DNA from: Candidatus Dadabacteria bacterium RIFCSPHIGHO2_12_FULL_53_21
GTDB taxonomy: Bacteria > Desulfobacterota_D > UBA1144 > Nemesobacterales > UBA2774
Assembly (NCBI GenBank): GCA_001775255.1
Contig: MFCJ01000037.1
Span: 1-36,847, forward strand
DNA length: 36,847 bases
Direction: 5' to 3'
The notes under the pieces are model-generated. The model was not told the DNA's origin. It did not search any database and saw only the letters and a program-made list of their open reading frames with translations. The position numbers and the translations under genes were made by a program. Shown here one piece after another: positions 6,849-31,204 of the stretch; within the stretch, counting starts at the first letter, position 1; each line of letters starts with the position of its first letter.

Positions 6849-7208
6849 TCACTCCGTATAATGAGCGACGACCCTCTCTATCTTTCCGTCACTTCCCGGA
6901 AACATGACCTCAGCGGCAAGCATCCCTTTGACACTACGGTAGTAAATTGTCAGGCTGTTGACCCCCGTCAGCACCTGCAAGGGCTCGAATTTGAGATCGG
7001 GATATACCTTGAGTCCCTTCCCGAAATATTCCCTGAGCTTCTCCTTTCCTCTTATCGTACCGGAAGATTCCCCCATGAGGCTTACCACGAACGGAGAAGT
7101 GAATTCAACGTCATCCGAATAGTGGGAGAGAATGGAATCGAGGTCATGCCTGTTCCACGACGCCATCCAATCCTTCGCTATCTGTGCGGCTCTTTCGGTG
7201 GAAAGCAT
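6849..7208 (-). CDS. SnoaL-like / NTF2-fold small protein (ketosteroid-isomerase-like)
   Basis: 119-aa ORF. The N-terminal IAKDWMASWNRHDLDSILSHYSDDVEF is the typical SnoaL/NTF2-like opening helix motif, and the size is typical. Confidence 0.7.
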   Translation of the reverse strand: MLSTERAAQIAKDWMASWNRHDLDSILSHYSDDVEFTSPFVVSLMGESSGTIRGKEKLREYFGKGLKVYPDLKFEPLQVLTGVNSLTIYYRSVKGMLAAEVMFPGSDGKIERVVAHYTE

Positions 7209-7322
7209 ATCGTTCCGTCCTGAAGCCGGTATTAACCGGTCGCGGGCATTTCGTGTCCGTGCCTGCGGTGTCGGCGTAGATAAGGATTCGAATACGCCCC
7301 GGCCCCCGTTCGGCTATGGCCC

Positions 7323-7721
7323 CTAGAGCTTGGCCTCTATCTTGCTCAGAATATAGCGCGAAAGGCTTTCATCGCCGAATGTCCCGATCCTGATGGATAT
7401 GTCGGTGAGGTTGTCGGTGACCCTTTTGAGCTGTATCTTCACGGTTTTATTGTCGGCCGTTTTCGATTCAAGCTCGGCCGATACGTTGTCCTTAAGCTTA
7501 TTGACGACCAGGAACTGAAGTTCATCGATAGCGGCTACAGTGGCTTCCCAGGTTTTGTTGAGAGTCGCTTCTTCGGTGGCTTTTAGTTCGCCTTTTATGT
7601 ACGCTACCGTGCCGGCGCCCGCCGCCGCCGCCCCGCCGACGGCCGCTGCCGCGAGGCAGCCCGTCAGAATAAACGGACATGCCGCGAGTAATACTAAGAT
7701 TAAGAGCTTCTGCTTTTTCAT
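7323..7721 (-). CDS. DUF3568-like lipoprotein
   Basis: The ORF-track frame is 7323-7781. I place the start at the internal ATG at 7721 (MKKQKLLILVLLAACPFILTGC) because GGAGGA lies 9 nt upstream. The lipobox LTGC is followed by an Ala/Gly-rich linker. Confidence 0.7.
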   Translation of the reverse strand: MKKQKLLILVLLAACPFILTGCLAAAAVGGAAAAGAGTVAYIKGELKATEEATLNKTWEATVAAIDELQFLVVNKLKDNVSAELESKTADNKTVKIQLKRVTDNLTDISIRIGTFGDESLSRYILSKIEAKL

Positions 7722-7950
7722 AACGGTGCTTCCTCCGGTGTTCAAGGTCTTATACTGACTCATTATGCATAAGTCATTCAATTATATACGGTGGGAGTCA
7801 ATTTTCGCAACCGAAATGTTCATTTCGCAAATATAGCCCGGGTTCTACCCTCTCCTAGTTATTACCGTCAACAACGGCGGGAGTGATCACAGGGGACCGC
7901 TCTCCGATAAAGCCCGTTGGCTTCCACAATTAACTGACTTGGGAGCGTTA

Positions 7951-7979
7951 TTGAATTATTACTCCCGCATTATTAGAAT
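7951..7979 (+). promoter_or_regulatory. Candidate promoter for the SLOG/SLATT-TIR cassette
   Basis: TTGAAT (7951-7956), 17-nt spacer, TAGAAT (7974-7979). It would give a leader of about 290 nt before the ATG at 8277. Confidence 0.3.
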
Positions 7980-8276
7980 TGTAATATCACGGGGTTAAGC
8001 AGGGTCTTGGGATCCGATGTGTAATCACAAGAAAAAAGCCTGTTCAGACAGACTGGGATATTTCGAAACCTTAAATGCGTTCAATCGTATATTGATAGGA
8101 GAGGCCGGTACGAATATCATCGTTAGACCGATGGCGAAGGCTTTCGTGTTTAGTAGTGAGCCCGAAGATAACAGCAGTGCCCTCATGATGGATACGATCT
8201 ACGGCTTAGAAAGTACACCCCCGGAACGCAGTCGTGTATCCGGGGTAGAAACCCGAATCCTCACCGACACTCGAAT

Positions 8277-10130
8277 ATGACGCCTATAAGCGAAGACTAT
8301 CTGATCCCGATTGTTATAGGCGTGACCGGCCGGAAAGGTGATTCCCCCGACGAGGAGCGAGTCTCCGCTCTGGCCCTCCCGGAGATGGTCAGGCTCAGGA
8401 ATACGTTTCCCAACTCCCCGTTCGTCGTAATATCTTCTCTCTCCGGGGGTGACGAATGCCTGCTCGCGAGGCTCGCGATCGAGCACCTTCGCGCCAGGCT
8501 TATAGCGGTACTTCCCTGCCCGCCCGGGCAGTATAAAAACGGGCTCCCGGATGGTAAATACAGGGAAGATTTCTCGGAGCTTCTAGGACGGGCCGAGTCG
8601 TCGATAGATATCTCATCGCTGATGAGGTATAAACTCGGCGGGACAGGGTACGGTTGGGCTGAGGACCGGGCAATGACCGAGAGATTCACCGCGGCCTTTA
8701 TCGCTGAGCACAGCGAAATCCTCTTCGCCATTTCATCCGTTGACGGAAAGGAAGAGCAGGACACGACGGCACGGATAATCAAATGGATACGCGAAGGCAG
8801 GATTACGCGGGAATACTCGCTCAGGATGAATAAGTCCGGCCTCGATACAATGGACAGGAGCATGATAATCTCAATCGACCCTGTGACCCTCCGGACGAAG
8901 ACGGAATCCGTTCCGGCCGACCTAGATTCCGTTCCGGTAATTTCCGGCCCTAAGAATCAATACGGCTTTCCCGGCGCAATATATAGAGCCGCTTCCCGAA
9001 AACTTTCCGGTCTCGTTCAATCCGTGAGTCTCTTTCTCGATAAACTTTATGATTCCTTTTTTAATCGTCCCGGTGCAGATATTACGGATGGCTATGAAAA
9101 ATCGCCCTTCACTGGCATTATGGAGAGGATCGACGGCTTTAACTCCGACATCAGGAATTACTTTGACAAATACGGCGACAAAGACCTCGTAAAATCCAAA
9201 CAGTATCTGCTTCAAAACGAATCGGATAACGAGTTGATATCCGGGGATGGGGCGCTCCGTAAAATAATTTGTCTTTACTCCGCGTCGGACGTATTGTCGC
9301 AATTCTATCAAAAGAAGACAGCGGGCCTTATCAGCTGGATTTACGTCCTCTTCTTTATAGCCGTCGTGCTCTATGGTCTCATCGACTGGAGCTCTTACCT
9401 AGTCCTTTGTTATATAGGGCTCATCCCCGCCATTGCGCTGCTCGTAAAAAAGACCTCGAGGGACAGGATCGAGGACCGCTTCCTCGATTACAGGGGGCTT
9501 GCGGAGGGGCTCCGGGTCCAGTTCTTCTGGACGCTCTCCGGGATTGACGAGAACGTGTCCTCGCATTACCTGAGCAAGTACGAGGGCCTGCTCACGTGGA
9601 TAAGAAAAGCAGTGAGAAGTATCGAGATTGTGACGGTAAGAACGGGGATTGCGGAACACGTTCCGGCAAACAATACGTTCATGGATATTACCAGGAAGCT
9701 ATGGATAGAATCCCAGCTGGGTTATTTCGGTACCAAGAAAAGACCACTCCTGGCGAGGTCCCAGCAGTTCGGCAATATTATGTTCTTGTCCTTCGTATTA
9801 ACCCTTTTGGTCGCTCTCGTGTACGGCATGTATGTTTTGTTTGCCGGGGTGGGCAATAGCGAGGCGATAAATAATTTTCAGATCCTCCTGGGCGTGATTG
9901 CCGCCGTGGGCGTAGCCGCTCAGGCATATAAAAACAAAAGGGCATACGATGAGCTCGAAAGGAGGTACAGCCTCGCTCAGCAGACATATGCCTCGGCGAA
10001 GAGGGAGCTCGAGATTGGCAAAGTGCCTCCGGAGAGTATCCTCATCGCGGTCGGCAGGGAGGCCCTTCTCGAGAACAGCGACTGGCTATGGACCCACAGG
10101 AATGTCCCCATAGAGGTGCCCAAAGGTTAG
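8277..10130 (+). CDS. SLOG-like (DprA/LOG-type Rossmann) domain fused to two 2-TM SLATT-like membrane modules; paralog A with degenerate nucleotide-binding motifs
   Basis: 617-aa ORF. N-terminal domain (aa ~8-200, nt ~8298-8876): IVIGVTGRK, VISSLSGGDECLLARLAIEH, IAVLPCPPGQYKNGL and ILFAISSVDGKEEQDTTARII, collinear with paralog B. 2-TM module 1 (aa ~330-425, nt ~9264-9551) ends in RIEDRFLDYRGLAEGLRVQFFW. 2-TM module 2 (aa ~470-600) starts WIESQLGYFGTKKR, and its hairpin is followed by YDELERRYSLAQQTYASAKRELE. The domain names are my motif-level recognition, not a search result. Confidence 0.6.
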   Translation: MTPISEDYLIPIVIGVTGRKGDSPDEERVSALALPEMVRLRNTFPNSPFVVISSLSGGDECLLARLAIEHLRARLIAVLPCPPGQYKNGLPDGKYREDFSELLGRAESSIDISSLMRYKLGGTGYGWAEDRAMTERFTAAFIAEHSEILFAISSVDGKEEQDTTARIIKWIREGRITREYSLRMNKSGLDTMDRSMIISIDPVTLRTKTESVPADLDSVPVISGPKNQYGFPGAIYRAASRKLSGLVQSVSLFLDKLYDSFFNRPGADITDGYEKSPFTGIMERIDGFNSDIRNYFDKYGDKDLVKSKQYLLQNESDNELISGDGALRKIICLYSASDVLSQFYQKKTAGLISWIYVLFFIAVVLYGLIDWSSYLVLCYIGLIPAIALLVKKTSRDRIEDRFLDYRGLAEGLRVQFFWTLSGIDENVSSHYLSKYEGLLTWIRKAVRSIEIVTVRTGIAEHVPANNTFMDITRKLWIESQLGYFGTKKRPLLARSQQFGNIMFLSFVLTLLVALVYGMYVLFAGVGNSEAINNFQILLGVIAAVGVAAQAYKNKRAYDELERRYSLAQQTYASAKRELEIGKVPPESILIAVGREALLENSDWLWTHRNVPIEVPKG

Positions 10131-10136
10131 AACGTT

Positions 10137-11921
10137 ATGAACGCGATCAAGAAAGTTGAATCCCCCCCGAAAGCCCGTCTCGCGGTCAGGGTCGGCGTTA
10201 CCGGCCACCGTCTGAACGGCCTCGATAAGGCCGATATCGCCGCGCTCAGGATGCGGGTGAACGAAGTCCTGAAGCATATAAGCGGCGTTGCCGGCGAGGT
10301 GAAGTCGTCATTCGAATCTTTGTATTCCGACGGCGGGCCGCCTGTACTGAGGATAATATCTCCTCTCGCGGAAGGAGCGGACACGCTCGTCGCGGAGGCA
10401 GCGCTTGCAGAAGGATTCGAGCTCCAGTGCGCGCTCCCTTTCGGCCGCCAGGAATATGAAAAGGATTTTGCGGACGGCCTATCCCTCGGCAAGTACCGGA
10501 CGCTCCTGGGGACCGCTGCCTCGATACTGGAGCTCGACGGTTCGCGGGCGACGCCCGAGGTCGAGAACGAGTCTTATCAGACCGTAGGCCGGATGGTACT
10601 CGCCCAGAGCGATGTGCTTATTGCGGTATGGGACGGAGAGGACGCGAAAGGGAAGGGAGGCACGGGTCAGATCGTGAAGGAAGCGCTCATTAACGAAATC
10701 CCCGTGGTTTGGATAAACTCCGGTGCCCCGCACGACATAATGGTGCTCATGGGAGGAGAATATGAGGGGTTTAAAAAAGCGAGCCTCCGAGAGCTGGAAC
10801 TCAGACTAAAGAGGGTCCTTAAACCCGAACACCCGAAGAAACCCGACCTCAGCCGTACGTACTTTGATGAAAAACAACCGACCTGGACATGGGGTTTCAT
10901 ATTCGAAGCCTTCTGCGATATATTCGCGCGGGATAGGGTAGATACCGGGGGGGCAAGGGTCGGGGATTTCAACGAATCATCAGAAACGGAATGGCAGAAG
11001 GTTTGGGACTCGTGTCCTGATTTTCCGCAGTCCGTGAAGGATCAGATTAACGAAAAATTCCTCGCTCACTACGCATGGGCCGATAGGCTCGCCAATTATT
11101 ATTCGAATATCTACAGGAGTTCTTTCCTGGCTAACTACCTGATGGCCGCTTTGGCGGTCTTATTCGCACTTCTTCCGCCAATACCGGGGTTTGAAAACCT
11201 GTGGGTACTCTGCGAGCTCGCTTTGATTATCATGATAATAGCAATCACGGCAGTAGGGAACCTGAAGCATTGGCACGAGAGGTGGATAGATTATAGGCTT
11301 CTATCGGAACAGATAAGGCATCTCAGGTTTCTCGCGCCTCTCGGCCTCACCACCCCGGCGTTCAGGGTGCCGGCCCATGATACATACGGAGACCCCAGGA
11401 GCTCGTGGGTAAACTGGCATTTCAGGGGGATTGTCCGAGAAGCGGGAATGGTAGGAACGAGGATAGACAGAGAATACCTCACATCCTACAGGGATTTCCT
11501 CTCGAAGCAGGAAATATCCGCCCAGATAGATTATCATAAACGCAACTCACCCCGCTTCCACAGGATCCATCACAATCTCCATCTAATTGGCGGGGGACTC
11601 TTCGTCCTCACTCTTATCGCGTGTTTAGCCCATCTGTATGTTCACAACGACCTGCTGACCATTCTGGCGGCCATATTGCCTGCATTCGGCGCTGCGTTCT
11701 ACGGTATCCGGACCCATGGGGAATTCGAGCTGATAGCGAAGCGGTCGGATGCCATGAGCGCCCATCTGGAGAACCTCAGGAACGAGATCGAAAAGACCGA
11801 TTTTGTACCATCTTACAGGCTCCTCGGCCAAATCGCTGAAGATACGGCGGAGGTAATGTCATCGGAAACACTAGACTGGAGGATTGTTTTTCAATCCAAG
11901 CGTTTGGTGTTGCCTGGGTAG
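10137..11921 (+). CDS. SLOG-like domain fused to two 2-TM SLATT-like membrane modules; paralog B with intact glycine-rich motifs
   Basis: 594-aa ORF starting 6 nt after paralog A. SLOG-like domain (aa ~14-205, nt ~10176-10751): VRVGVTGHR, IISPLAEGADTLVAEAALAEG, CALPFGRQEYEKDF and LIAVWDGEDAKGKGGTGQIV. The motif order parallels DprA (xVGTR / SGxAxGID..AH / AVLxxGxDxxYP). Module 1 (aa ~305-400): YYSNIYR, two TM helices, then HWHERWIDYRLLSEQIRHLRFL, resembling the DUF4231/SLATT W..YR..aE.L motif. Module 2 (aa ~450-590): QIDYHKRN, two TM helices, then AKRSDAMSAHLENLRNEIE. Confidence 0.65.
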   Translation: MNAIKKVESPPKARLAVRVGVTGHRLNGLDKADIAALRMRVNEVLKHISGVAGEVKSSFESLYSDGGPPVLRIISPLAEGADTLVAEAALAEGFELQCALPFGRQEYEKDFADGLSLGKYRTLLGTAASILELDGSRATPEVENESYQTVGRMVLAQSDVLIAVWDGEDAKGKGGTGQIVKEALINEIPVVWINSGAPHDIMVLMGGEYEGFKKASLRELELRLKRVLKPEHPKKPDLSRTYFDEKQPTWTWGFIFEAFCDIFARDRVDTGGARVGDFNESSETEWQKVWDSCPDFPQSVKDQINEKFLAHYAWADRLANYYSNIYRSSFLANYLMAALAVLFALLPPIPGFENLWVLCELALIIMIIAITAVGNLKHWHERWIDYRLLSEQIRHLRFLAPLGLTTPAFRVPAHDTYGDPRSSWVNWHFRGIVREAGMVGTRIDREYLTSYRDFLSKQEISAQIDYHKRNSPRFHRIHHNLHLIGGGLFVLTLIACLAHLYVHNDLLTILAAILPAFGAAFYGIRTHGEFELIAKRSDAMSAHLENLRNEIEKTDFVPSYRLLGQIAEDTAEVMSSETLDWRIVFQSKRLVLPG

Positions 11922-11938
11922 TCAATCACAGCTATAAT
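11910..11938 (+). promoter_or_regulatory. Candidate internal promoter for the TIR gene, embedded in the 3' end of the preceding gene
   Basis: TTGCCT (11910-11915), 17-nt spacer, perfect TATAAT (11933-11938). It is followed by a purine-rich SD region (GGAGGAGAGGGGGGA, 11956-11970) and the ATG at 11976. Confidence 0.4.
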
Positions 11939-11975
11939 CCTCCGGTATTTCCTCTGGAGGAGAGGGGGGAAACAG

Positions 11976-13349
11976 ATGGCTCACGATGTTTTTATCAGTC
12001 ACTCCGGAAAAGACAAACCCATAGCCGACGCCGTGTGCGCGACACTGGAAATCGGCGGCGTAAGGTGCTGGATCGCGCCGAGAGACATAGTGCCCGGCAC
12101 ACAGTGGGGCGAGGCGATTATAGATGCCATAAGCTCGAGCCGGGTCATGGTGCTCGTTTTCTCTTCCAATGCCAATGAATCCCAGCAGATCATCAGGGAA
12201 GTAGAACGCGCGGTCAGCAAGGGCATACCCGTTATCCCTTTCAGGGTCGAAGACGTCGACCCCAATAAATCCCTCGAATATTTCATAAGCGCACCGCACT
12301 GGCTCGATGCCTTGACCCCGCCCCTCGAAAAGCACCTGGAACAGCTTCTGTCCACAATAAAGCTGCTGCTCTCAAGACAAGGGGCGCGCACAGAACCTCC
12401 TTCCGACGGAGATACCGCGCGAGCAAGCGGAGCCACTCCATCCGGGCCCGAAAGGGCCGGTCGGGAGTCGGATACGCGCATTGAAACCATCAGGCCGCTC
12501 GAAAAGAAGGATTATTCCGGCGGAAAGTCTTTCCTCGAGGATAAAAAGAAGCTCGGCGGTCTAATAGCCCTAGTCCTGGTTTTAGGATTGGCCGGGTATC
12601 TGATTTTCGGCGGCGGTGACGACGGCAATGATGGGACGAACAATAATCAGAACCAGATCATACCGGGCCCGTCCAATCATTATCAGCCTCCCGTATATAC
12701 CCCGTCCCCTCCCGGTCCGTACGATAACGAAGGGAACTGGGGGGCTATAGCGATTGCGCCAAGCGGGGGCTGGGGTTTTTCCTCGAACATGTCCTCGAAA
12801 CAGGCGGCCGAGAAGGACGCTGTTGAAAGGTGCAGTCAATTCAATACGGGGTGCGAGGTCAGAATCTCGTTCAATACCTGTGCTGTCTATGCCACGGCCC
12901 CGGACGGGTCATACGGTTGGGCGACAAATACTACCGTCGATCTGGCGAGAAATAACGCGGTAAGCGAATGTCACAAGTATACGAATGATCTGTGCTCCTC
13001 GTTCATCGAATTGTGCGCCGACGGGAGCGTTAAGAGTGTCAATGAATGGGCTGCGATAGCGACTGCCGACAATGGGCAATACGGCGCCGCATGGAACTAT
13101 CCCACGCGGGTCCAGGCGGAAAAAGCGTCGGTCGATGAGTGTGCGAAGTACGGGCCCAACTGTCAGATGAGGATTTCGTTCACCGACTGCGGTGCTATAG
13201 CGAGGAGTGAGGACGGAGCTATCGGATGGGGCTATTATGCGGACATGAGCCAGGCGGTCAAGGCTGCGATGGATGAGTGCGACAACCGGGGCGAAAAACC
13301 CTGCAGCATCCTCACCCAGCTCTGCGCCGACGGGAGCGAGAGGAAATAA
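11976..13349 (+). CDS. TIR-domain protein with a single TM anchor and two extracytoplasmic DUF4189-like six-cysteine repeats
   Basis: 457-aa ORF. TIR (aa ~3-130, nt ~11982-12365): DVFISHSGKDK..., RVMVLVFSSNANESQQIIREVERAV (candidate catalytic Glu75, nt 12198-12200) and PHWLDA. An acidic/Pro-rich linker follows. TM helix LGGLIALVLVLGLAGYLIF (nt ~12552-12608). Repeat 1 is aa ~255-349 and repeat 2 is aa ~358-453; each starts W(G/A)AIA and each has 6 Cys with identical spacing (7-9-30-8-7). Confidence 0.75.
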   Translation: MAHDVFISHSGKDKPIADAVCATLEIGGVRCWIAPRDIVPGTQWGEAIIDAISSSRVMVLVFSSNANESQQIIREVERAVSKGIPVIPFRVEDVDPNKSLEYFISAPHWLDALTPPLEKHLEQLLSTIKLLLSRQGARTEPPSDGDTARASGATPSGPERAGRESDTRIETIRPLEKKDYSGGKSFLEDKKKLGGLIALVLVLGLAGYLIFGGGDDGNDGTNNNQNQIIPGPSNHYQPPVYTPSPPGPYDNEGNWGAIAIAPSGGWGFSSNMSSKQAAEKDAVERCSQFNTGCEVRISFNTCAVYATAPDGSYGWATNTTVDLARNNAVSECHKYTNDLCSSFIELCADGSVKSVNEWAAIATADNGQYGAAWNYPTRVQAEKASVDECAKYGPNCQMRISFTDCGAIARSEDGAIGWGYYADMSQAVKAAMDECDNRGEKPCSILTQLCADGSERK

Positions 13350-21100: not shown

Positions 21101-22252
21101 CTAGGCCATCTCTTTTTTGCTCGATACGAGCCTGTCCAGTATCTCCCTCTGAATGGCTTCTATCTCTTCCCCTGCTGTCTTGATTTCATCCGTGGGCTTC
21201 CCCCTTTCCCTGCACTCCTCGACCAGCTCGTCCAGCTTCGCCCCTATGTGCTTTAGCTTCGTCTGGGCTTCGATATTGGCTTTTATCAGCATTTCCTCGC
21301 TCTCCCATTCCCGCCTCGAATATGCGTCGAGCTCTTTTGCCTGTATGAGCAGCTCCCTCAGCCGGTCCCTCCAGCCGTGGAGCGATTGATGGATGACCGA
21401 CTGGATTTCGGCTTTTTCCCCGGGCTCCCTCCATAGTACGTTCTCCAGAAAGCGCAGGTCGTCCTCGGAGACCTCGCTCCTCCCCTCGAGGTATGCCCTG
21501 GATTTGAGAAGAGAGACCGATTGCTTATATCTTCTGTCTGAGGGGGTTATGCCCTTTTTCGCCAGGTCTTTTCTGATACGGGATATGAGCTTCAATATGT
21601 TCGAAGGCAGCTTGACCCTTCCCGCTTCTTCCCGGCAGGAATCGAGTTCCTCCGAGGTGATTACCCCTTCTACGGAAATTTCGTTCTCGGTGTTGAGCAT
21701 CTTAAGAAATCTGAAGTCTTCTTTTATGTAGTCCACGACGTACCTCAGGAGGAACCTGTCGTAAAGGGCTTCGAGCTCGTCTTCCTCGGAGGGAAGCTCG
21801 TTGCTCGCACCGAATAAAGAGATAAGCGGTATCCTGACCTTTTCAGTGCCGTTATAAAAGATTCTTTCATTCATAATCGTGAGCAGCGTATTGAGGATCG
21901 AGGAGCTGGCTTTAAAGACCTCGTCCAGGAACGCTATATGCGCTTCAGGGAGCTTCCCCGAGGTGACTCTCCTGTATTCGTCGTTCTCAAGCCCCTTCAA
22001 GCTTACAGCGCCGAATAGCTCCTCGGGTGTGGTGAACTTGGTAAGAAGCCACTGGAAATAGCGGGCTCCGGTTATCTTGCGGCAGATTTCGTTAGCGAGC
22101 TGGGACTTGGCCGTGCCCGGAGGGCCGATAAGCAGCAGGTGGCTCCCCGTAAGGAGGGCGCAGAAGGCGCCGTCTATTACGTCATCCCTTTCGAAGTAAC
22201 GCGATTTCAGATCGCTTCTAATTTTCTTTAATTTTTCTAGAGTTCTTTCCAT
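21101..22252 (-). CDS. MoxR-class AAA+ ATPase, RavA-like (no LARA domain, coiled-coil C-terminus)
   Basis: 383-aa ORF. Walker A is LLLIGPPGTAKS and Walker B is IAFLDEVFKA. TKFTTPEELFG and ILNTLLTIMNER are collinear with the E. coli RavA N-terminal module as I recall it. Its start overlaps the gspK stop by 16 nt. Confidence 0.85.
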   Translation of the reverse strand: MERTLEKLKKIRSDLKSRYFERDDVIDGAFCALLTGSHLLLIGPPGTAKSQLANEICRKITGARYFQWLLTKFTTPEELFGAVSLKGLENDEYRRVTSGKLPEAHIAFLDEVFKASSSILNTLLTIMNERIFYNGTEKVRIPLISLFGASNELPSEEDELEALYDRFLLRYVVDYIKEDFRFLKMLNTENEISVEGVITSEELDSCREEAGRVKLPSNILKLISRIRKDLAKKGITPSDRRYKQSVSLLKSRAYLEGRSEVSEDDLRFLENVLWREPGEKAEIQSVIHQSLHGWRDRLRELLIQAKELDAYSRREWESEEMLIKANIEAQTKLKHIGAKLDELVEECRERGKPTDEIKTAGEEIEAIQREILDRLVSSKKEMA

Positions 22253-23349
22253 GTCACGATGTCCACTATAACTTCCTGGTCACGTCTGGTTTTCTTGAGT
22301 ACCGCTTCGATTATTCTCTTTGTCGGGTTCTCCTCGCCGAGGCTGCCTACGGCCCGTACGGTGAAAATCTCGCTCTCCCCGCTGCCGAGCACGACGCCTA
22401 CCAGACCGGCGCTGATCTCGGACGTCTCGTCGACGCTCTTAGCTATCTCCCTCGCTTTCTGCTGGGTTATTATAGGCGTTTCCTTTCTCTCCTCTATTAT
22501 CTGATCCGCAATCTGTTCCGCCACGTCGTCGTCGACCTCCTTTTCGGAGCCTCCGCCCTGGCCCTCGATGGCGGAAACGGCCGATCCCTTAACCGCGGCT
22601 ATAATCACCGCCTTCGGAGCCGTGCTGAAGTTTATCTTCTTATCTCGCGGAAAGACGGTGACGAAATCCTTAATCTGGTTATAGAATTCGTCGTCCATGC
22701 CGTCTATCATCCTGATTTCCTGGAGTGTGTCGATAGGGCCGTCCTTTATGCTGTAAGGGTTTTCGAGGCTGGCATAGAAAGACCCGTTCGCTCCCGCCGC
22801 GTCCTGATCGTTTTCAGCGCCGTCGAGCGGGGCGTCCGTCCAGTTAATGAGGCTCGAAATGAACCTCGCGGACTTGGCCTCGTCGACCTCGAGGATTTTG
22901 AAAAGCTCGGTGAGCTCGGTCCGGACCTGCCGGTCTACTTTGTTTGTCGAGCGGCCGACGAGTGAGTTCAGGTTTATCTTCGACCTCTCGTCCGTGACCG
23001 TAACGGATACGTTCCCCTGCCCGACGGGGAAATACGGCACGTTGATCGCCCAGAAGCCCTCCAGGTTCTCGTCTTGTCCGCCGAGCGCGGCAGTCAGCGA
23101 GCTCAACTCTTCAAGCGGCCTCGCTTTAAGCGTCCCCGCCGCCACGTGCACCCCCGATTTGGCGATATACCGGGCTTTGATTTCGTCCCTCGTGTTTGAC
23201 GATATCTCCGTATCTATCTGAGTGAAATAAATAAGGTCCGTTACGAGAATCATAAGGACCGCAATAATGATAATCACTATTACAAGGACGATCCCTTTTT
23301 CCTGATCCCTGTTCCTCGCGTCGTTCGTAATTTGGTATCTGTTTTTCAT
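22237..23349 (-). CDS. gspK: Type II secretion system minor pseudopilin GspK
   Basis: 370-aa ORF with the N-terminal hydrophobic helix GIVLVIVIIIIAVLMILV. Its size and its position after gspJ are typical of GspK. Confidence 0.8.
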   Translation of the reverse strand: MKNRYQITNDARNRDQEKGIVLVIVIIIIAVLMILVTDLIYFTQIDTEISSNTRDEIKARYIAKSGVHVAAGTLKARPLEELSSLTAALGGQDENLEGFWAINVPYFPVGQGNVSVTVTDERSKINLNSLVGRSTNKVDRQVRTELTELFKILEVDEAKSARFISSLINWTDAPLDGAENDQDAAGANGSFYASLENPYSIKDGPIDTLQEIRMIDGMDDEFYNQIKDFVTVFPRDKKINFSTAPKAVIIAAVKGSAVSAIEGQGGGSEKEVDDDVAEQIADQIIEERKETPIITQQKAREIAKSVDETSEISAGLVGVVLGSGESEIFTVRAVGSLGEENPTKRIIEAVLKKTRRDQEVIVDIVTWKEL

Positions 23350-23386
23350 GGTTGCCGGGTTCTTTTAGTTTGAGAGCTCGCCTGAA

Positions 23387-24046
23387 TTAATTGACTATTG
23401 GTATCATTACCAGCGTATTGAACTGTACGTCATCCCCCCTTGGATTCTTCAGGACCAGATTTACATTGACAGCGGCCGGCAGAGACAATGTCTCGTTCGA
23501 ATTCCACTCGGTCGAATAGCCCTGGGCTTCCCCGGTTTCCGGGATCTTCGGCAGATATGTGAGGTTGAAACCCGCAATCCGCTCCGATATCGCATACTGG
23601 GTGCCCCCGGTATCGGACTCGAACGTCGGGTTGTCTCTCCTCACCAGGGCGAAAAGGTCCGAGTCCTCGATCGGCTCGAGAAAATAGCTTATTTCGCTCT
23701 GGTCCGATTCCCTTGCGTCCTGAGCCGGCGTGCGGGATAGCGAAGTGAAACTCAATTTACTGTTTTGTCCGTCTTCCACCCCGTAGAAAAACGGGGTGGT
23801 AATATTGGTTGATTGCGAATTTATAAGTCCCCTGGGGAAAGCGGTCGCCAGGTCTTTTGTGATCTTCGACATGATGATTCTGGCCTCGTGATAAAGCTCG
23901 AGCTCTTCCTCTATCCTGTCCTTCGCCCTGTTTATCTGAAAGAAGGAAGCGTATAGGACAGTGAGGACTATCGACCCTATAAAGATCGCAAGCAGTACTT
24001 CGATAAGGGTAAACCCTTTACCCGTGGTCCGAGATTGCGGTCGCAA
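23387..24046 (-). CDS. gspJ: Type II secretion system minor pseudopilin GspJ
   Basis: 219-aa ORF with the prepilin-type leader and cleavage motif [16 protein letters not shown]. Confidence 0.85.
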
Positions 24047-24428
24047 CTGTGAACTCCCTATCCCCTTCGTCCCAGGTTATGGTCAGTATCACTATCCTTA
24101 TTTCGGTCCCGAGCTGCTCTATATTGTACGGCTGGACTGATAAATACCATCCGAACTCCGGCTGTTCCTCGAAAACACCCTCCTGGTTCCCGATCTCCGG
24201 AAACCCCTCGATCTCGACCTCTCCGAGCTTCCTTTGAGCGAGGAATGAAGCAATAGTAATATTCTTCGATTGCGAGGCGAGGACGAGGTTCTTGTTTACG
24301 GCGCCGAGCAATATTGCGAGCGACGATCCGATAATGGCGACAGCAATTATTACCTCGAGAAGCGTAAACCCGGATCTCCGGGTCGGGACTCCCGAGCGGA
24401 ATCGTGGTTCATCAGTGCGGATTTTGAT
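24018..24428 (-). CDS. gspI: Type II secretion system minor pseudopilin GspI (start codon uncertain or non-canonical)
   Basis: The ORF track starts at TTG 24311. However, the same frame stays open up to 24449 and encodes [24 protein letters not shown], a prepilin cleavage motif plus helix. No ATG, GTG or TTG lies in frame upstream, so I provisionally start it at ATC 24428, which has GAGG 6 nt upstream. Confidence 0.6.
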
Positions 24429-24445
24429 TTTTTGCCTCGGCCTGT

Positions 24446-24961
24446 TTATTTATCCCTCAAAAGCTCTACGTACTCATCGTATACCCTTATCCCGCCCGTG
24501 TAGGGTTTGGTCTCCAGCGTATAGTAGTCTTCGTTATCGGTTACCAGATGGATGACCGCGGGTTCGACAAAACCTGTTGGCAGGAACAGGATAAATTCCC
24601 CGGAATCGTCAAGGGAGCTTCTCCCAAGCGTGCGTTCGGTTATGACATCCTTGAAATGTACGCCTCCGGGCAGCGTCCGTTTTTTGTGCAGGTAATCGGT
24701 AGACACCACATACTCGCTGCCGTTCAGCACTTCGACCCAGTACTCCCCCCTGTCGATATCGAAAACGAGCCTGTATATATTCTTTTTAAACGCCGCTTCG
24801 TTGTACAGGTATCTTATCGTTCCGCTCAGGTTCCGGGAAGCGCTCTTTACGTTGATCTCTGTGCTGCTTTTAATCTTCGGTACGGCTATAAATACGAAAG
24901 CGCCGACCAGAAAAATCACGACCAGGAGTTCTATGAGTGTAAAACCGCTGCTCTTCCTCAT
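24446..24961 (-). CDS. gspH: Type II secretion system minor pseudopilin GspH
   Basis: 171-aa ORF with the leader [20 protein letters not shown]. Its start overlaps the gspG stop by 1 nt (TAATG). Confidence 0.8.
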
Positions 24962-25389
24962 TATTGTATTGTACGGCTTGAAATATCGTCCTCTGACTGC
25001 TGCACTGCATCCTCACCGATGGAGATAATCTCATAAGTTCCGTCCCCTGTCTGGTCGGGCCCTATGTATATGAACTCGCTTTTCCAGCCGTCCTTGGGGA
25101 CCTGGTCACCGTCCAGGTATCCGTCCTTTGCGTAACAGCAAGGCTCTCTCCCGCTCGTCGGCTGCTGTATCAGGGCGATAAGCCCCTGTTGTGTCTCGGG
25201 GTAGAATCCGTTATCCAGCTTAAAGAGCTTCAGCGCCGACTCCAGGTTTTTTATCTGGATCTTGGTCTCCTCTTTCTTGGCCTCTCCGAACCTTCCGATC
25301 ACATTCGTGCCCACGATGTATGCGAGCCCGGCTATGATCAGGAGCACGACCATAATTTCAATAAGCGTAAAACCACCTTCAGATCTCAT
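24961..25389 (-). CDS. gspG: Type II secretion system major pseudopilin GspG
   Basis: 142-aa ORF. MRSEGGFTLIEIMVVLLIIAGL, LESALKLFKLDNGFYPETQQGLIALIQQP and DGW...Y match the GspG consensus. Confidence 0.9.
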   Translation of the reverse strand: MRSEGGFTLIEIMVVLLIIAGLAYIVGTNVIGRFGEAKKEETKIQIKNLESALKLFKLDNGFYPETQQGLIALIQQPTSGREPCCYAKDGYLDGDQVPKDGWKSEFIYIGPDQTGDGTYEIISIGEDAVQQSEDDISSRTIQ

Positions 25390-25403
25390 AACTCTTACCT
25401 CCT

Positions 25404-26609
25404 TTATCCGATAGTTGATGTCAAATTAAATATTGGCAGCAGCACGGCGAATACGATGAACCCCATCACGGCGCCTATTATTAAAATCATAACAGGTTCA
25501 AGAAGAGAAGTAAGGGTCGATACCATTGTTTCGACCTGCTGGTCGTAGATGTCCGCGACTTTCGTGAGCATCTCCTCCATTTCACCGGTTTGCTCCCCGA
25601 CGGCTATCATTCGTGTAACGAGCGGCGGGAATACCCCGCTGTCCCTGAGCGGTTTCGCCAGGCTCGTCCCCTCCCTTACATTGGACCTGACCTCTTCGAG
25701 CGTCTTGCTGTAGACCCGGTTGTCCAAAACGGCTTCGCCTATTTTGAGCGCGTCGAGGAGCGGTATGCCGCTCGCAAGGAGCGTACCCAGGGTGCGTGTG
25801 AACCTCGATATCACGACCATGGAGTTTATTTTCCCGAATACGGGCAGTTTGAGAGACAACCTGTCGAAAAACATCCTGCCGCGGGCCGTCTGATTAAACC
25901 GGTAGGCCAGGAAAAAGAGTACCGGGAGCAATATAAGGATGAGCAGTATGTTATTGCTGAAAAATCCGCTTACTTTTATCAGTATTACCGTCATGACGGG
26001 CAGAGCCTTCTGGCTGTCCTCGAATATCTTCGCGATCCTGGGTATTACATAAGTCATCGTGAAGAAGAGCACTCCGCCGCCTATGAAAAACATGAATATC
26101 GGGTATATAAGCGCGCTCTTTACCTTGGAAGACAGGGCGGCCTGTTTTTCAAGAAAATCTGCAAGTCTGAGGAGGACTATGTCGAGCGTGCCGCTCGCCT
26201 CCCCGGCCCTGACTATATTTATGTAGAGGTCGGAGAAAACGCTCCGGTGCTCGTTGAGGGCGTTAGCTAAAGAGCTGCCCTCGCTGACCCTGTCCTTCAC
26301 CTGAGTCAGTATCTCACCCAGCCTCGCGTCCTCCGTTTGTTCGGAGAGGGCGGTCAGAGATGCTTCGAGGGGAAGTCCCGCCGAGATGAGTGTCGAAAAT
26401 TGCCTCGTCGTAATCGCGAGCTCGGAAATTTTAACGCCCCTGAAGAAATTAAAGCTTCTCGCCTTTCCCTGTCTGACTTCGCTAAGGGACGAAAGGAAGA
26501 CACCCTGGCGCTTGAGTTTGTCCGTTGCGCCCTTCGGGGATTCCGCATCTAAGATGCCCTGGACGGTCCGTCCGGTCTCGTCAATAGCTTTATATTTATA
26601 TACGGGCAT
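25404..26609 (-). CDS. gspF: Type II secretion system inner-membrane platform protein GspF
   Basis: 401-aa ORF starting MPVYKYKAIDETGRTVQG, with duplicated T2SS-F domains and three TM segments. Confidence 0.9.
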   Translation of the reverse strand: MPVYKYKAIDETGRTVQGILDAESPKGATDKLKRQGVFLSSLSEVRQGKARSFNFFRGVKISELAITTRQFSTLISAGLPLEASLTALSEQTEDARLGEILTQVKDRVSEGSSLANALNEHRSVFSDLYINIVRAGEASGTLDIVLLRLADFLEKQAALSSKVKSALIYPIFMFFIGGGVLFFTMTYVIPRIAKIFEDSQKALPVMTVILIKVSGFFSNNILLILILLPVLFFLAYRFNQTARGRMFFDRLSLKLPVFGKINSMVVISRFTRTLGTLLASGIPLLDALKIGEAVLDNRVYSKTLEEVRSNVREGTSLAKPLRDSGVFPPLVTRMIAVGEQTGEMEEMLTKVADIYDQQVETMVSTLTSLLEPVMILIIGAVMGFIVFAVLLPIFNLTSTIG

Positions 26610-26664
26610 ATCTTATATATTCTCCGATTCTGTATTTAAAATTGGGGTGATCTGGTTAGGCGGG

Positions 26665-28344
26665 TTAGATAATGCTTTCCTCTTCTGTAACCCTCATGAC
26701 CTCGTCGACCGAAGTCAAGCCCCTTGCCACTTTCTCAGCCCCGTCCATCCTGAGCGTGGTCATTCCGTGCTCCATTGCCTTTCTCTTGATCTTTGTAGAG
26801 TCGACCTGACTGAGGGTCAGGTTCCTGATATCGTCGTTGATCATCAGCATCTCGAAAATCCCTGTCCTGCCGCTGTACCCCATGTTAAAGCATTTGTCGC
26901 ACCCCTTCGCCCTGTAAAGCACGCCGTCGTGCAGCTGGCTCCGGCGAAGGCCTATCTTCAATAGTTCGTCGTCATGGGGCTCGTAGGGCTCTTTGCAGTG
27001 GTTGCAAAGGAACCGGAGGAGCCGCTGCGCGATTACGGCCATAAGCGAAGAGGCTACCAGGAACGGCTCGATCTCCATGTCTATAAGCCTCGTGATGGCG
27101 CTCGCCGAATCGTTCGTGTGCAGGGTGGAGAAAACGAGGTGTCCCGTGAGCGACGCGTGGATGGCTATATCCGCGGTCTCTCTGTCCCTTATCTCGCCGA
27201 CCAGGATTACGTCCGGGTCCTGCCTGAGTATGGACCTGAGGCCGTTTGCGAAAGTCAGGTTCACTTTGGGGTTAACCTGTATCTGGTTTATCCCCTGAAT
27301 CTGGTATTCTACGGGGTCTTCGACAGTGATGATTTTTTTGTCCGGTGAGTTAATCCTTTCGAGGCCGGCGTATAGCGAAGTCGTTTTACCGCTGCCGGTG
27401 GGGCCGGTGACCAGTATGATGCCGTGAGGACGCAGTATCAGACCCTCGAAAATGTGTAGTTTCTTTCCGGCGAGCCCGAGGTCTTCAAGAGTCAGGAGCA
27501 CGGAGGATCTGTCGAGGATCCTCATTACTACGCTCTCCCCCCACGTGGTCGGAACGGTCGATATACGGACATCGACATCCCTGCCCGCGACCTTGACTCT
27601 GATCCTTCCGTCCTGGGGTTTCCTCTTCTCGGCGATGTCGAGCTCGGCCATGATCTTGACCCTCGAAATAATAGATGCCTGGAGTTTTTTCGGCACGGAA
27701 GTTATCTCATGGAGTATGCCGTCCTTTCTGAACCTGACGGACAGCTCCTTTTCGAAGCACTCGAGATGTATATCGCTCGCTTTCTCCTTTACCGCCTGAA
27801 AGAGGAGAGAATTGACGAACTTGATAATAGGGGCTTCGTCTTCGGCTTCGAGGAGGTCTTTAGGCTCCTGAAGGTCGTATTCCGAAATACCGGTCGAATC
27901 GTCTTCGATCCCTTCCGTCATCTCCTTGCCGCGCTCGTAGACCCGGTTAATGGTGTCGAGGACGATGTGGTTAAGCGCGAGTACGGGTTCGATTTCGCAC
28001 CCGAAGAGTGACTGGACTTCATCGAGGGCGTAAAGGTCGAGCGGCGGGGACATGATTATAACTACCTTTCCGTTCTTCCTCTGAAACGGTATAAGCCGGA
28101 ATTTTTTTGCGAAGCTTATCGGCAGCGTCTTTACGAGCTCCGTGTCTATTTCCCGCTCGGATATTGTGAGAGTATATGGGAATTCATAGAACTCGGAGAG
28201 CACCTCCAGGACTTCCTTCTCGTCGAGGACTCTCGACTTGATTAATACTTCCTCGAGGCTTTCTCCGTTTTTCGATAATAACTCATCAATCTTAATCAGT
28301 GCGGCGGGATTCCGCTCGCCTATTATTTCCTGAATGCTTTTCAT
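26665..28344 (-). CDS. gspE: Type II secretion system ATPase GspE
   Basis: The ORF-track frame reaches 28458 but overlaps gspD. I start it at the ATG at 28344 (MKSIQEII). It has the N-terminal T2SE_Nter-like domain, Walker A GPTGSGKTT, the Asp/His boxes and the tetracysteine motif CNHC...CDKC. Confidence 0.92.
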   Translation of the reverse strand: MKSIQEIIGERNPAALIKIDELLSKNGESLEEVLIKSRVLDEKEVLEVLSEFYEFPYTLTISEREIDTELVKTLPISFAKKFRLIPFQRKNGKVVIIMSPPLDLYALDEVQSLFGCEIEPVLALNHIVLDTINRVYERGKEMTEGIEDDSTGISEYDLQEPKDLLEAEDEAPIIKFVNSLLFQAVKEKASDIHLECFEKELSVRFRKDGILHEITSVPKKLQASIISRVKIMAELDIAEKRKPQDGRIRVKVAGRDVDVRISTVPTTWGESVVMRILDRSSVLLTLEDLGLAGKKLHIFEGLILRPHGIILVTGPTGSGKTTSLYAGLERINSPDKKIITVEDPVEYQIQGINQIQVNPKVNLTFANGLRSILRQDPDVILVGEIRDRETADIAIHASLTGHLVFSTLHTNDSASAITRLIDMEIEPFLVASSLMAVIAQRLLRFLCNHCKEPYEPHDDELLKIGLRRSQLHDGVLYRAKGCDKCFNMGYSGRTGIFEMLMINDDIRNLTLSQVDSTKIKRKAMEHGMTTLRMDGAEKVARGLTSVDEVMRVTEEESII

Positions 28345-28360
28345 ATCATCAAATTTAAGA

Positions 28361-31090: not shown

Positions 31091-31204
31091 TATTCGGTCC
31101 TCACACTCTGTGCGGGCTCTTCTCCGTCTCTGCTTGAATAATCAGATCCCGTACGGGGCACATAATCCAATATCGGCAATGAAACCGAACATCCGGACTC
31201 TCTT

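Follow-up and report, generated by a model that had tools for sequence, protein, structure and literature searches.

A putative Thoeris-like operon encoding a membrane TIR protein and two SLOG-SLATT paralogs in a Candidatus Dadabacteria genome

Among the systems in which a TIR protein signals to an effector, Yirmiya et al. catalogued 29 putative Thoeris types (bioRxiv 10.64898/2025.12.03.692087). In the verified type VII, the TIR protein ThsB is paired with the SLATT effector ThsH and the signal is canonical cyclic ADP-ribose (cADPR); in type I, the SLOG domain of ThsA binds 3'cADPR; and a candidate type named 'SLOG and 4TM' or '4TM SLOG' is listed in Tables S1 and S2, the standalone TIR proteins having been left out of the catalogue by stated design (bioRxiv 10.64898/2025.12.03.692087). 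SLATT is described as an effector with two transmembrane helices that is associated with SMODS and SLOG (Pfam description), and work from Aravind's group reported TIR-SLATT gene neighbourhoods and predicted that SLATT acts as a pore under the control of ADP-ribose derivatives (PMC9503650; PMC7159879). Here we analyse a cassette of three genes (genes 1, 2 and 3) in a 36,847-nucleotide stretch, referred to as the window, of the genome of Candidatus Dadabacteria bacterium RIFCSPHIGHO2_12_FULL_53_21 (assembly GCA_001775255.1, contig MFCJ01000037.1), encoding two SLOG-SLATT paralogs, the first of them degenerate, and a membrane TIR protein.

The three open reading frames (ORFs) lie on the plus strand in the same direction, with intergenic gaps of 6 and 54 nt, and their coordinates were exactly those given in a first-pass annotation of the DNA; the 6-nt gap between genes 1 and 2 suggests translational coupling. 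Our analysis leans towards one operon for a membrane-embedded, Thoeris-like nucleotide second-messenger pathway, in which we infer the ligand and the trigger, the direction of the signal, the formation of a pore and of hetero-oligomers, and the biological role. An extracytoplasmic cue would be received by the two periplasmic DUF4189 domains of gene 3, the outer location of the trigger being a tentative proposal; the cytoplasmic TIR domain would then use NAD+ to make a messenger derived from ADP-ribose (ADPR), of the cADPR or ADPR type, this signal would be bound by the cytoplasmic SLOG domain of gene 2, and the SLATT modules of gene 2 would open or assemble as a membrane-permeabilising pore, leading to depolarisation, growth arrest or death. 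Gene 1 would most likely contribute to a mixed gene 1/gene 2 assembly, either as a regulator or as a subunit that does not sense the signal. That the TIR and the SLOG-SLATT proteins work together is probable. The arrangement of TIR producer, SLOG sensor and SLATT pore had been proposed in the first-pass annotation, and it is the best-supported reading of the sequence data because gene 2 homologs adjoin TIR genes in unrelated phyla and in different gene orders.

Domain architecture of the three proteins

The predicted sensor-effector is gene 2 (Table 1). Its hydropathy profile revealed four hydrophobic helices arranged as two hairpins, as had been annotated for both paralogs. Pfam DUF4231 matched residues 312-398 with 31.4 bits (cut-off 24.7), NCBIfam SLATT_1 matched with 64 bits (cut-off 41; best stretch at residues 307-399), and Pfam SLATT_1 matched residues 460-581 just under its cut-off (24.1 bits against 26.3, E = 4e-5). 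In a set of diverse gene 2 homologs (n = 42), DUF4231 was matched in 42/42 and SLATT_1 in 31/42. The helix that follows the second transmembrane helix of the first hairpin bears an invariant DYR..E..R in the families of both gene 1 and gene 2, and one polypeptide carries both the hairpins and the SLOG domain.

An AlphaFold model of gene 2 residues 1-248, built from the 42-homolog alignment, displayed a Rossmann-like fold (predicted local distance difference test score, pLDDT, 91.7; predicted template modelling score, pTM, 0.89), and the significant Foldseek matches in the PDB came almost entirely from the SLOG superfamily, to which all the top matches belonged (probability 1.0, TM-score 0.4-0.54). 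They comprised DprA (5mll, 4ljk and 3uqz), ShosA (8zva), the LOG-like protein TM1055 (1rcu) and a MoCo carrier protein (2iz7), as well as the N-terminal domains of TRPM2/4/5/8. In BFVD, which holds predicted viral structures, the best matches were DprA-like, 'YpsA-related SLOG' and DUF2493 proteins (TM-score up to 0.84, E down to 3e-11). The model thus confirmed, at the level of predicted fold, that the N-terminal domain of gene 2 belongs to the SLOG superfamily. All four motifs that had been quoted for this domain were found in the protein, and the following residues were invariant in the 42 homologs: G20, G23, H24 and R25 (GVTGHR), A78, G80 and D82 (AEGAD), D159, W165, and G174, G175 and T176 (GGTG). 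This is the pattern of glycine-rich loops expected of nucleotide-binding SLOG, LOG and DprA domains. The SLOG domain and the helices between the hairpins are predicted to be cytoplasmic because a signal peptide is lacking and the transmembrane helices are even in number.

Gene 3 opens with a TIR domain, as annotated (Pfam TIR_2 at residues 5-124, 80.6 bits against a cut-off of 28, E = 1.7e-22), and its Glu75, within an invariant REVERA motif, aligned to the catalytic Glu85 of B. cereus ThsB, so that the domain is predicted from its profile and its catalytic glutamate to be a competent enzyme. The first-pass annotation had missed that the topology of the protein appears receptor-like. The 15 residues before its only transmembrane helix contain five lysines or arginines and the 15 residues after it none, in agreement with the positive-inside rule, and all 12 cysteines beyond the helix lie inside the DUF4189 region (134 bits, E = 2.4e-39, in two stretches). 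DUF4189 has been described as a periplasmic, disulfide-stabilised, protein-binding fold, the example studied being XAC2611, which binds VirB5 (bioRxiv 10.64898/2026.05.09.723464). The single helix, the charge asymmetry and the cysteine-rich outer domain together suggest that the TIR domain faces the cytoplasm, on the same side as the SLOG domain, and that the DUF4189 domains lie outside.

A gene 3 orthologue directly follows the gene 2 homolog in all the relatives from the lineage. TIR domains of the gene 3 type share 47-89% identity across phyla, with invariant CWIAPR, REVERA, LEY and LDA motifs, and define a highly abundant family whose members mostly stand alone and span the membrane once, with more than 600 metagenome matches (loci examined, L093-L172, in our own numbering). 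Exactly one transmembrane helix was predicted in 54 of the 59 complete metagenomic relatives, and lysines plus arginines across the flanks of the helix numbered 68 on the TIR side versus 34 on the opposite side. The TIR neighbours of gene 2 homologs (n = 26) followed the same plan, with one strong transmembrane helix after the TIR domain in 22, two in 2, none in 1 and only a weak hydrophobic segment in 1. The C-terminal domains are swapped among these TIR proteins, and include DUF4189, BNR/PSII_BNR propellers, PQQ propellers, SH3, PDZ, PPC, Sel1, TPR and FGE-sulfatase domains. No published description of this CWIAPRD/REVERA family was found.

Genes 1 and 2 had been called clear paralogs. Their pairwise similarity was marginal (BLASTP identity of 23-24%, E = 0.003 and 0.009), but a profile-profile comparison of the two families by hhalign aligned 544 columns end to end (probability 99.2%, E = 6e-20), so that gene 1 is, on these alignments, a true but distant full-length paralog of gene 2. 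It was assigned to SLATT on the basis of this end-to-end homology, its own scores being below cut-off: hairpin 1, the counterpart of gene 2 SLATT module 1 in the alignment, matched DUF4231 weakly (E = 0.062), and hairpin 2 matched SLATT_1 weakly in Pfam (E = 0.015) and in NCBIfam (E = 2.9e-4). The full-length AlphaFold2 (AF2) model of gene 1 (pLDDT 77.6) has the same order of strands and helices as gene 2, and its Foldseek matches were YpsA (2nx2, TMt 0.61), DprA, TM1055 and the MoCo carrier protein, together with a weak match to the SLOG domain of ThsA bound to 3'cADPR (7uxs); this search returned no solved structure resembling the SLATT membrane part. The annotated Rossmann-like domain with the DprA/LOG order of motifs thus held for both proteins as regards the fold and for gene 2 as regards the motifs. 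GVTGHR, AEGAD, WDG and GGTG, which are invariant in the gene 2 family, are absent from the gene 1 clade, where the membrane half is very strongly conserved despite the loss of motifs in the N-terminal half. Since remoter relatives of gene 1 (about 25% identity) retain GVTGHR, AEGxD, WDG and GGT, the loss is specific to this clade, whose members are confined to the Dadabacteria/Thermodesulfobacteriota lineage and always lie directly 5' of a gene 2 homolog. Because of the lost motifs gene 1 is not considered a second sensor, and the predicted sensor is gene 2, with its motif set intact. As in gene 2, the lack of a signal peptide and the even number of transmembrane helices predict a cytoplasmic SLOG domain.

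Table 1. Coordinates of the cassette features in the window (aa, amino acids; TM, transmembrane helix)
Feature	Coordinates	Strand	Basis
Candidate operon promoter, TTGAAT-17 nt-TAGAAT	7951..7979	+	Consensus scan; within the 495-nt intergenic region 5' of gene 1
Gene 1, 617 aa, degenerate SLOG and two SLATT-like 2TM modules	8277..10130	+	ORF; profile homology to gene 2 family
Gene 1 SLOG-fold domain (~aa 10-215), family motifs lost	8304..8921	+	AF2 model, Foldseek
Gene 1 hairpin 1: TM 351-369 and 375-393, then amphipathic helix with invariant DYR.LAEGLR	9249..9539	+	Hydropathy, invariant columns
Gene 1 hairpin 2: TM 503-521 and 530-548, then C-terminal helices	9669..10103	+	Hydropathy, alignment to gene 2 SLATT module 2
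Gene 2, 594 aa, predicted sensor-effector	10137..11921	+	ORF; SLOG domain then two SLATT modules
Gene 2 SLOG-fold domain (~aa 12-230)	10170..10826	+	AF2 model, Foldseek, invariant columns
Gene 2 SLATT module 1: TM 331-349 and 355-373, then helix WHERWIDYRLLSEQIR	11055..11333	+	Pfam DUF4231, NCBIfam SLATT_1
Gene 2 SLATT module 2: TM 484-502 and 506-524, then C-terminal helices	11514..11879	+	Pfam SLATT_1, hydropathy
Gene 3, 457 aa, single-pass membrane TIR protein	11976..13349	+	ORF; strong ribosome-binding site GGAGGAG upstream
Gene 3 cytoplasmic TIR domain (predicted), Glu75 at catalytic position	11976..12380	+	Pfam TIR_2; alignment to ThsB
Gene 3 TM aa 193-211, predicted N-in/C-out	12552..12608	+	Hydropathy 2.5; K/R asymmetry
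Gene 3 tandem DUF4189 x2 (aa 255-347 and ~352-453), predicted periplasmic	12738..13334	+	Pfam; bounds of second repeat approximate

Linkage of TIR genes to the gene 2 family across phyla

The gene 2 family comprises 4051 clusters at 50% identity (E <= 1e-30), nearly all of the top 150 being about 600 aa long, and at least 946 clusters at 90% identity; it occurs in at least 550 GTDB species. Recurrence of TIR genes beside homologs of the paralogs had been set beforehand as a check on the proposal, and for gene 2 it was passed. ORFs were called in 80 GTDB loci, 69 of them outside the source lineage; inside it, conservation by itself proves little because the entire neighbourhood is syntenic. Of the 69 outside loci, 22 had a TIR gene no more than two genes away from the gene 2 homolog, in at least three gene orders, and the linked loci spanned Acidobacteriota, Methylococcales, marine Alphaproteobacteria, uncultured lineages and a Caballeronia megaplasmid. 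TIR ORFs were concentrated close to the gene 2 homolog, with 24/260 at a distance of one or two genes, 8/224 at three or four and 0/256 at five or more, a distribution whose Fisher p-value (3.7e-6) is only indicative, as the loci are not phylogenetically independent. This within-locus distance control led us to reject chance adjacency.

The arrangements differed among groups. In Acidobacteriaceae, the gene 2 homolog is followed by a TrkA_N+RyR membrane protein gene and then by one or two convergent TIR-BNR propeller genes; in Methylococcales, it is followed by a TIR-TPR-PDZ gene and a TrkA_N-RyR gene. Two uncultured lineages (L040 and L045) have TIR-TPR, TIR-FGE-sulfatase and the gene 2 homolog in this order, and in Marinicaulis/Parvularculaceae the gene 2 homolog precedes a TIR-FGE-sulfatase gene. 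A convergent TIR-cyclase-STAND-TPR gene was found in Caulobacteraceae and a divergent TIR-receiver gene in L075, while the RefSeq annotation of the Caballeronia megaplasmid lists a 'DUF4231 domain-containing protein', a 'TIR domain-containing protein' and a WD40 protein, one after the other.

These results bear on the explanation that the three genes are functionally unrelated and stand together through lineage synteny alone. The whole surrounding region is indeed syntenic within the source lineage, but the adjacency of TIR and SLOG-4TM genes recurs in unrelated phyla with other flanks and gene orders, and the 6-nt spacing and the constant tandem arrangement of the gene 1/gene 2 pair speak against it as well, so that we regard this explanation as effectively refuted.

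The reverse search, starting from the TIR side, detected a SLOG-4TM neighbour at about 6 of the 80 closest metagenomic TIR loci of the gene 3 type (L093, L099, L124, L133, L151 and L154). Taken together, both searches reveal that the linkage between TIR and SLOG-4TM genes is real but facultative.

Other genes also recur beside gene 2 homologs. Proteins with a RyR domain (PF02026) were found in L016:2058-4139 (+), L021:5398-7209 (+), L028:6695-6985 (+), L077:8863-9159 (+), L039 and L051, and are of two kinds: TrkA_N+RyR membrane proteins of about 690 aa, whose genes begin only 4 nt past the gene 2 homolog, and RyR-only proteins of 96-108 aa. In eukaryotes, cADPR is associated with RyR channels, and ADPR is associated with TRPM2, which makes the joint occurrence of SLOG-pore, RyR-domain and TIR genes in bacteria intriguing. 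A Kir-like K+ channel was also present among the neighbours.

A PADLOC run on 10 representative partner proteins provided further matches. Patatin-like phospholipase genes (L060:8909-10171 (+), and also L030, L038, L043 and L074) lie beside gene 2 homologs that lack a nearby TIR gene, and resemble the phospholipase effectors of cyclic-oligonucleotide-based antiphage signalling systems (CBASS; PADLOC E = 9e-36). In a Thermoanaerobaculia metagenome-assembled genome (MAG), a 795-aa TIR_2 + PNP_UDP_1 protein (L061:4035-6422 (+)) is encoded 23 nt upstream of the gene 2 homolog, and the PNP part of this fusion matched a CBASS effector of the PN superfamily in PADLOC. The Caulobacteraceae protein, of 1135-1351 aa, is convergent with the gene 2 homolog (L049:6868-10923 (-) and L071:8909-12316 (-)); that of L049 combines TIR, adenylate/guanylate-cyclase-like, STAND (AAA_16) and TPR domains in an NLR-like architecture, and that of L071 was grouped with it by TIR match, size and position. 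These partners (TIR-PNP, TIR-cyclase-STAND and CBASS-like patatin) belong to the repertoire of nucleotide signalling and so favour the proposed pathway.

Full-length members of the gene 2 family were absent from 2.9 million IMG/VR viral contigs and from phage genomes, any viral contig that matched doing so weakly and in no more than the N-terminal domain, and were present in 2 of 72,556 plasmid records. Phages do encode small standalone proteins with the SLOG sub-fold of gene 2 (BFVD A0A7G8LE34 and A0A516L7T0, and the viral locus L086:7001-7510), at TM-scores up to 0.83 and 18-29% identity to the N-terminal domain; they could be nucleotide sponges or DprA-like proteins. The homolog on plasmid pSBC2-4 of Caballeronia sp. 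SBC2 (L173:7046-8779, WP_165106806.1) seems to have been given a RefSeq start that lies too far into the gene: its tblastn alignment with gene 2 begins 45 nt upstream of the annotated start (query residue 17), and the annotated protein lacks the GVTGHR region. In an Acidobacteriota MAG (L057), a 223-aa SLOG-only ORF (6989-7660, plus strand) directly precedes a full-length gene 2 homolog (7678-9474, plus strand), which would reflect either the partial duplication of the gene in tandem or a second copy disrupted by a frameshift.

Competing explanations and genomic setting

Several findings weigh against the proposed pathway, with respect to the SLOG domain, the strength of the linkage and the setting of the cassette, and so does the lack of phage defence in E. 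coli from the two 'SLOG and 4TM' candidates assayed there (bioRxiv 10.64898/2025.12.03.692087). The N-terminal domains of genes 1 and 2 (about 230 residues) had zero matches in Pfam, NCBIfam, PADLOC and PDB sequence profiles, and scans of the 42 members of the gene 2 family yielded no curated SLOG sequence family; the sole link at the sequence level came from tblastn, in which gene 2 residues 74-194 matched plasmid genes, one of them bearing the annotation DUF1273, the YpsA family (38.8% identity, E = 3e-8). The SLOG identity of these domains was consequently settled by the predicted folds, as the structure check proposed at the outset had foreseen; the accompanying profile check matched the SLATT, TIR and DUF4189 families in the cassette proteins. 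The TM-scores of the gene 2 model against the PDB were modest (0.4-0.6), and DprA and YpsA were closer than the ligand-sensing SLOG domain of ThsA.

An enzymatic role of the SLOG domain of gene 2 would accommodate these matches. The domain would be a LOG-, YpsA- or DprA-like enzyme or nucleic-acid binder, perhaps acting at the membrane to cleave or modify a nucleotide, be it the TIR product or a different one. In structure it comes closest to DprA, YpsA, the LOG-like protein and the MoCo carrier protein, and not to the ThsA SLOG domain; His24, Arg25, Asp82 and Asp159 are invariant beyond the glycine-rich loops, and the LOG family includes real hydrolases. An enzyme would, however, be hard to reconcile with the constant fusion to two SLATT modules in about 4000 clusters, with the fact that SLATT was defined through its link to the signalling modules SLOG and SMODS (Pfam description), and with gene 1, which tolerates full loss of the motifs yet retains its membrane part. 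Both the enzymatic role in particular and this explanation as a whole are judged very unlikely.

The linkage is incomplete in both directions: about two thirds of the gene 2 homologs have no nearby TIR gene, and about 74 of the 80 closest TIR genes of the gene 3 type have no SLOG-4TM neighbour. These proportions, and the replacement of the TIR gene by patatin or other proteins beside some gene 2 homologs, would be expected if the TIR protein were a self-contained, NAD+-depleting sensor-effector and the SLOG-SLATT protein were not its downstream receptor but responded to another nucleotide, or acted upstream or in parallel, adjacency then reflecting co-regulated membrane stress functions. Yirmiya et al. 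likewise caution that TIR proteins in unverified configurations may be NAD+-depleting effectors (bioRxiv 10.64898/2025.12.03.692087). This explanation is unlikely: TIR genes cluster strongly at one or two positions from gene 2 homologs, across several phyla and in various gene orders; the only obvious input for a SLOG domain joined to a pore module is a ligand derived from a nucleotide; and there are precedents for signalling from TIR to SLOG and from TIR to SLATT. Those precedents, the binding of 3'cADPR by the SLOG domain of ThsA and the response of ThsH to TIR-made cADPR, support signalling from gene 3 to gene 2.

The setting of the cassette is a chromosomal housekeeping context in which it is vertically inherited. 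The flanking genes encode superoxide dismutase, a sigma-70 factor, ribonucleotide reductase (RNR), DUF924, SnoaL_2, DUF3568 and DUF3108 proteins, an SDF transporter and a Zn peptidase; the relatives, of which the closest are MAGs labelled Thermodesulfobacteriota or Candidatus Dadabacteria, keep the order RNR, DUF924, SnoaL_2 and DUF3568, cassette, DUF3108, SDF and Zn peptidase, with synteny extending down to 56% identity of gene 2. As the first-pass annotation had noted for the flanks of the cassette, no tRNA, integrase or transposase gene lies within the window; its base composition is unremarkable, with no shift, and an origin of the locus as a mobile element or island was rejected on these grounds. 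The suggested PADLOC check came out negative, with zero matches for genes 1 and 2 in its 2023 release, which is older than type VII Thoeris. With syntenic housekeeping flanks and neither integrase nor tRNA, the cassette lies outside any recognisable defence island, a placement that is nevertheless compatible with defence and does not exclude it.

Outside the syntenic block, about 6 kb downstream of its cassette, one relative (L002) has a gene for a large serine recombinase with Resolvase and Recombinase domains (L002:15921-17759 (-)), which the window lacks. Further along the window, a type II secretion cluster (21101-32137, minus strand) encodes GspC, a LysM-bearing GspD secretin, GspE, GspF and J/K pseudopilins, and the K pseudopilin gene overlaps at its 3' end with the gene for a bpMoxR-type AAA+ ATPase (21101-22252). 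The bpMoxR family is usually found in MoxR-vWA-beta-propeller ternary systems.

At the putative operon promoter (Table 1), a block TTGAATTATT...CATTATTAGAATTGT is kept at the equivalent position in three relatives (L001, L003 and L006), making the site a candidate for the promoter. The leader of gene 1 (7782-8276) is unusually long, at 495 nt, and several of its blocks are conserved in relatives, for instance AATCGTATATTGAT near 8080-8100; Rfam had zero matches across the whole window, this leader included. An ORF of 87 aa (8017-8280) that overlaps the start of gene 1 was rejected as a gene, its protein sequence not being kept in the relatives.

The setting is what would be expected if the mechanism were as proposed and the role were not anti-phage. 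The cassette would then serve outside-in housekeeping signalling, its SLOG-gated SLATT channels controlling ion flux or membrane potential with no lethal purpose, and the variable outer domains of the TIR proteins could possibly sense envelope damage, contact-dependent attack or an environmental ligand. Beyond the syntenic flanks, this explanation is favoured by the absence of full-length family members from viral contigs and phage genomes and their rarity on plasmids, by the single transmembrane helix followed by a periplasm-typical domain in 54 of 59 TIR proteins of the gene 3 type, by the recurrent TrkA_N/RyR membrane partners and the Kir-like K+ channel, and by the two 'SLOG and 4TM' systems (from Streptomyces sp. 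GKU 895 and Ca. Nitrospira nitrosa) that gave no phage defence in E. coli (bioRxiv 10.64898/2025.12.03.692087). Set against it are the conflict-type genes that adjoin other gene 2 homologs (CBASS-like patatin, TIR-STAND-TPR and TIR-PNP), the restriction of SLATT and TIR, as characterised so far, to defence and abortive-infection settings, the compatibility of a chromosomal syntenic site with defence, and the lack of a known ligand for the outer domains. We consider it possible but somewhat unlikely. As to the role within the favoured Thoeris-like pathway, the partners in other lineages and all the precedents point to conflict or defence, while the housekeeping context, the outward sensor domains, the partners of ion-channel type and the negative tests in E. 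coli leave room for a non-phage or non-suicidal function.

A broader reading, suggested by the joining of a constant catalytic TIR domain to variable, outward-facing binding domains, is that gene 3 represents a large, unstudied family of single-pass TIR 'receptors' that sense outer cues and signal inwards, through an NAD-derived messenger, to SLOG-gated SLATT channels and, in other lineages, to TrkA_N/RyR membrane proteins, gene 1 being a dedicated regulatory pore subunit; we offer it as a rather unlikely, speculative extension. If true, it would describe an outside-in TIR pathway distinct from the classical cytoplasmic phage sensor, and a prokaryotic counterpart of the topology of Toll-like receptors and of ADPR- or cADPR-gated channels of the TRPM2 and RyR type. 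Verified Thoeris TIR proteins are described as sensors of phage invasion, without reported outer domains, whereas the cassette TIR carries a periplasmic domain of a protein-binding type. Speculatively, the failure of the 'SLOG and 4TM' systems in E. coli would be explained if the cue were not an intracellular phage component. Should the pathway work as proposed, the uncharacterised 'DUF4231-domain' family, with its approximately 4000 clusters at 50% identity, would gain a function as ligand-gated membrane effectors, miniature TRPM2-like proteins composed of a SLOG domain and a permeation module. The housekeeping setting and the pseudo-sensor encoded by gene 1 raise the question of whether such pores serve suicide only, or also reversible physiology.

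Relationship to known TIR, SLOG and SLATT systems

The first-pass annotation had presented the cassette as a new, distinct architecture, which overstates the case, since a TIR protein with a SLATT effector is the verified type VII and 'SLOG and 4TM' is already a listed candidate. The latter class, with a TIR gene beside a SLOG and four-transmembrane effector, has exactly the architecture of gene 2, and gene 2 likely belongs to the same family as its published effectors, as compared by the described architecture and by the TIR protein of L061, the only ORF in the loci examined that resembled the two published '4TM SLOG' TIR proteins (phmmer E = 2.7e-7 and 1.7e-4). The contig with the best homolog of the published N. 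nitrosa TIR protein (L085) had no SLOG-4TM neighbour. The TIR proteins of the class seem to be of another subfamily than gene 3, given that the CWIAPRD and REVERA motifs are absent from a part of Table S1, which is weak evidence; for that part of the table, the lack of the subfamily fits the exclusion of standalone TIR proteins from the catalogue. The class is described without a membrane TIR protein with a periplasmic domain, a degenerate second paralog or a housekeeping context, and all three are found here.

With type VII Thoeris, the cassette shares the pairing of a TIR gene with a SLATT membrane effector, thought to form a membrane-breaching oligomer upon binding of a TIR-made nucleotide. 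It differs in that the ligand pockets of ThsH lie between SLATT protomers, whereas gene 2 has a separate SLOG domain before two tandem SLATT modules, and in the subfamily and topology of its TIR protein and its location away from a defence island. The SLOG domain and the two SLATT modules of gene 2 set it apart from type VII, as does, weakly, the absence of the gene 3 motifs from the same part of Table S1. With type I, it shares a TIR producer and a ligand-sensing SLOG domain that would control a fused effector, 7uxs being among the fold matches of gene 1. The predicted effector is a SLATT pore in the cassette and a SIR2 NADase in ThsA, no SIR2 domain having been matched in the proteins of genes 1-3 by Pfam, NCBIfam or PADLOC; moreover, the cassette SLOG domain is structurally nearer to DprA and YpsA, and ThsB is cytoplasmic, in contrast to the membrane-anchored gene 3. 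The SLATT effectors of CBASS and other SMODS/SLOG systems (PF18181 and related families) resemble the cassette proteins in their SLATT_1 and DUF4231 matches, in a hairpin followed by an amphipathic helix and in the association with SLOG, but the cassette operon has no SMODS or cyclase gene and its chains contain two SLATT modules each.

Two further analogies are functional only. As in TRPM2, a SLOG fold is attached in gene 2 to a membrane permeation module, the membrane parts not being homologous; and like the Toll-like receptors, gene 3 is a single-pass protein with the TIR domain inside and a binding domain outside, with the order of the domains reversed. The TIR domains of Toll-like receptors are scaffolds, and bacterial TIR domains are typically NAD+-consuming enzymes. 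The cassette has the general layout of Thoeris, a TIR gene co-directional with the gene for a predicted signal-binding effector at short spacing, in an adjacency that recurs across phyla, and it is an unusual variant of known Thoeris-type TIR signalling rather than a wholly new kind, distinguished by its receptor-like TIR protein, its degenerate second paralog, its vertically inherited housekeeping context and the recurrent RyR and TrkA_N partners of its family.

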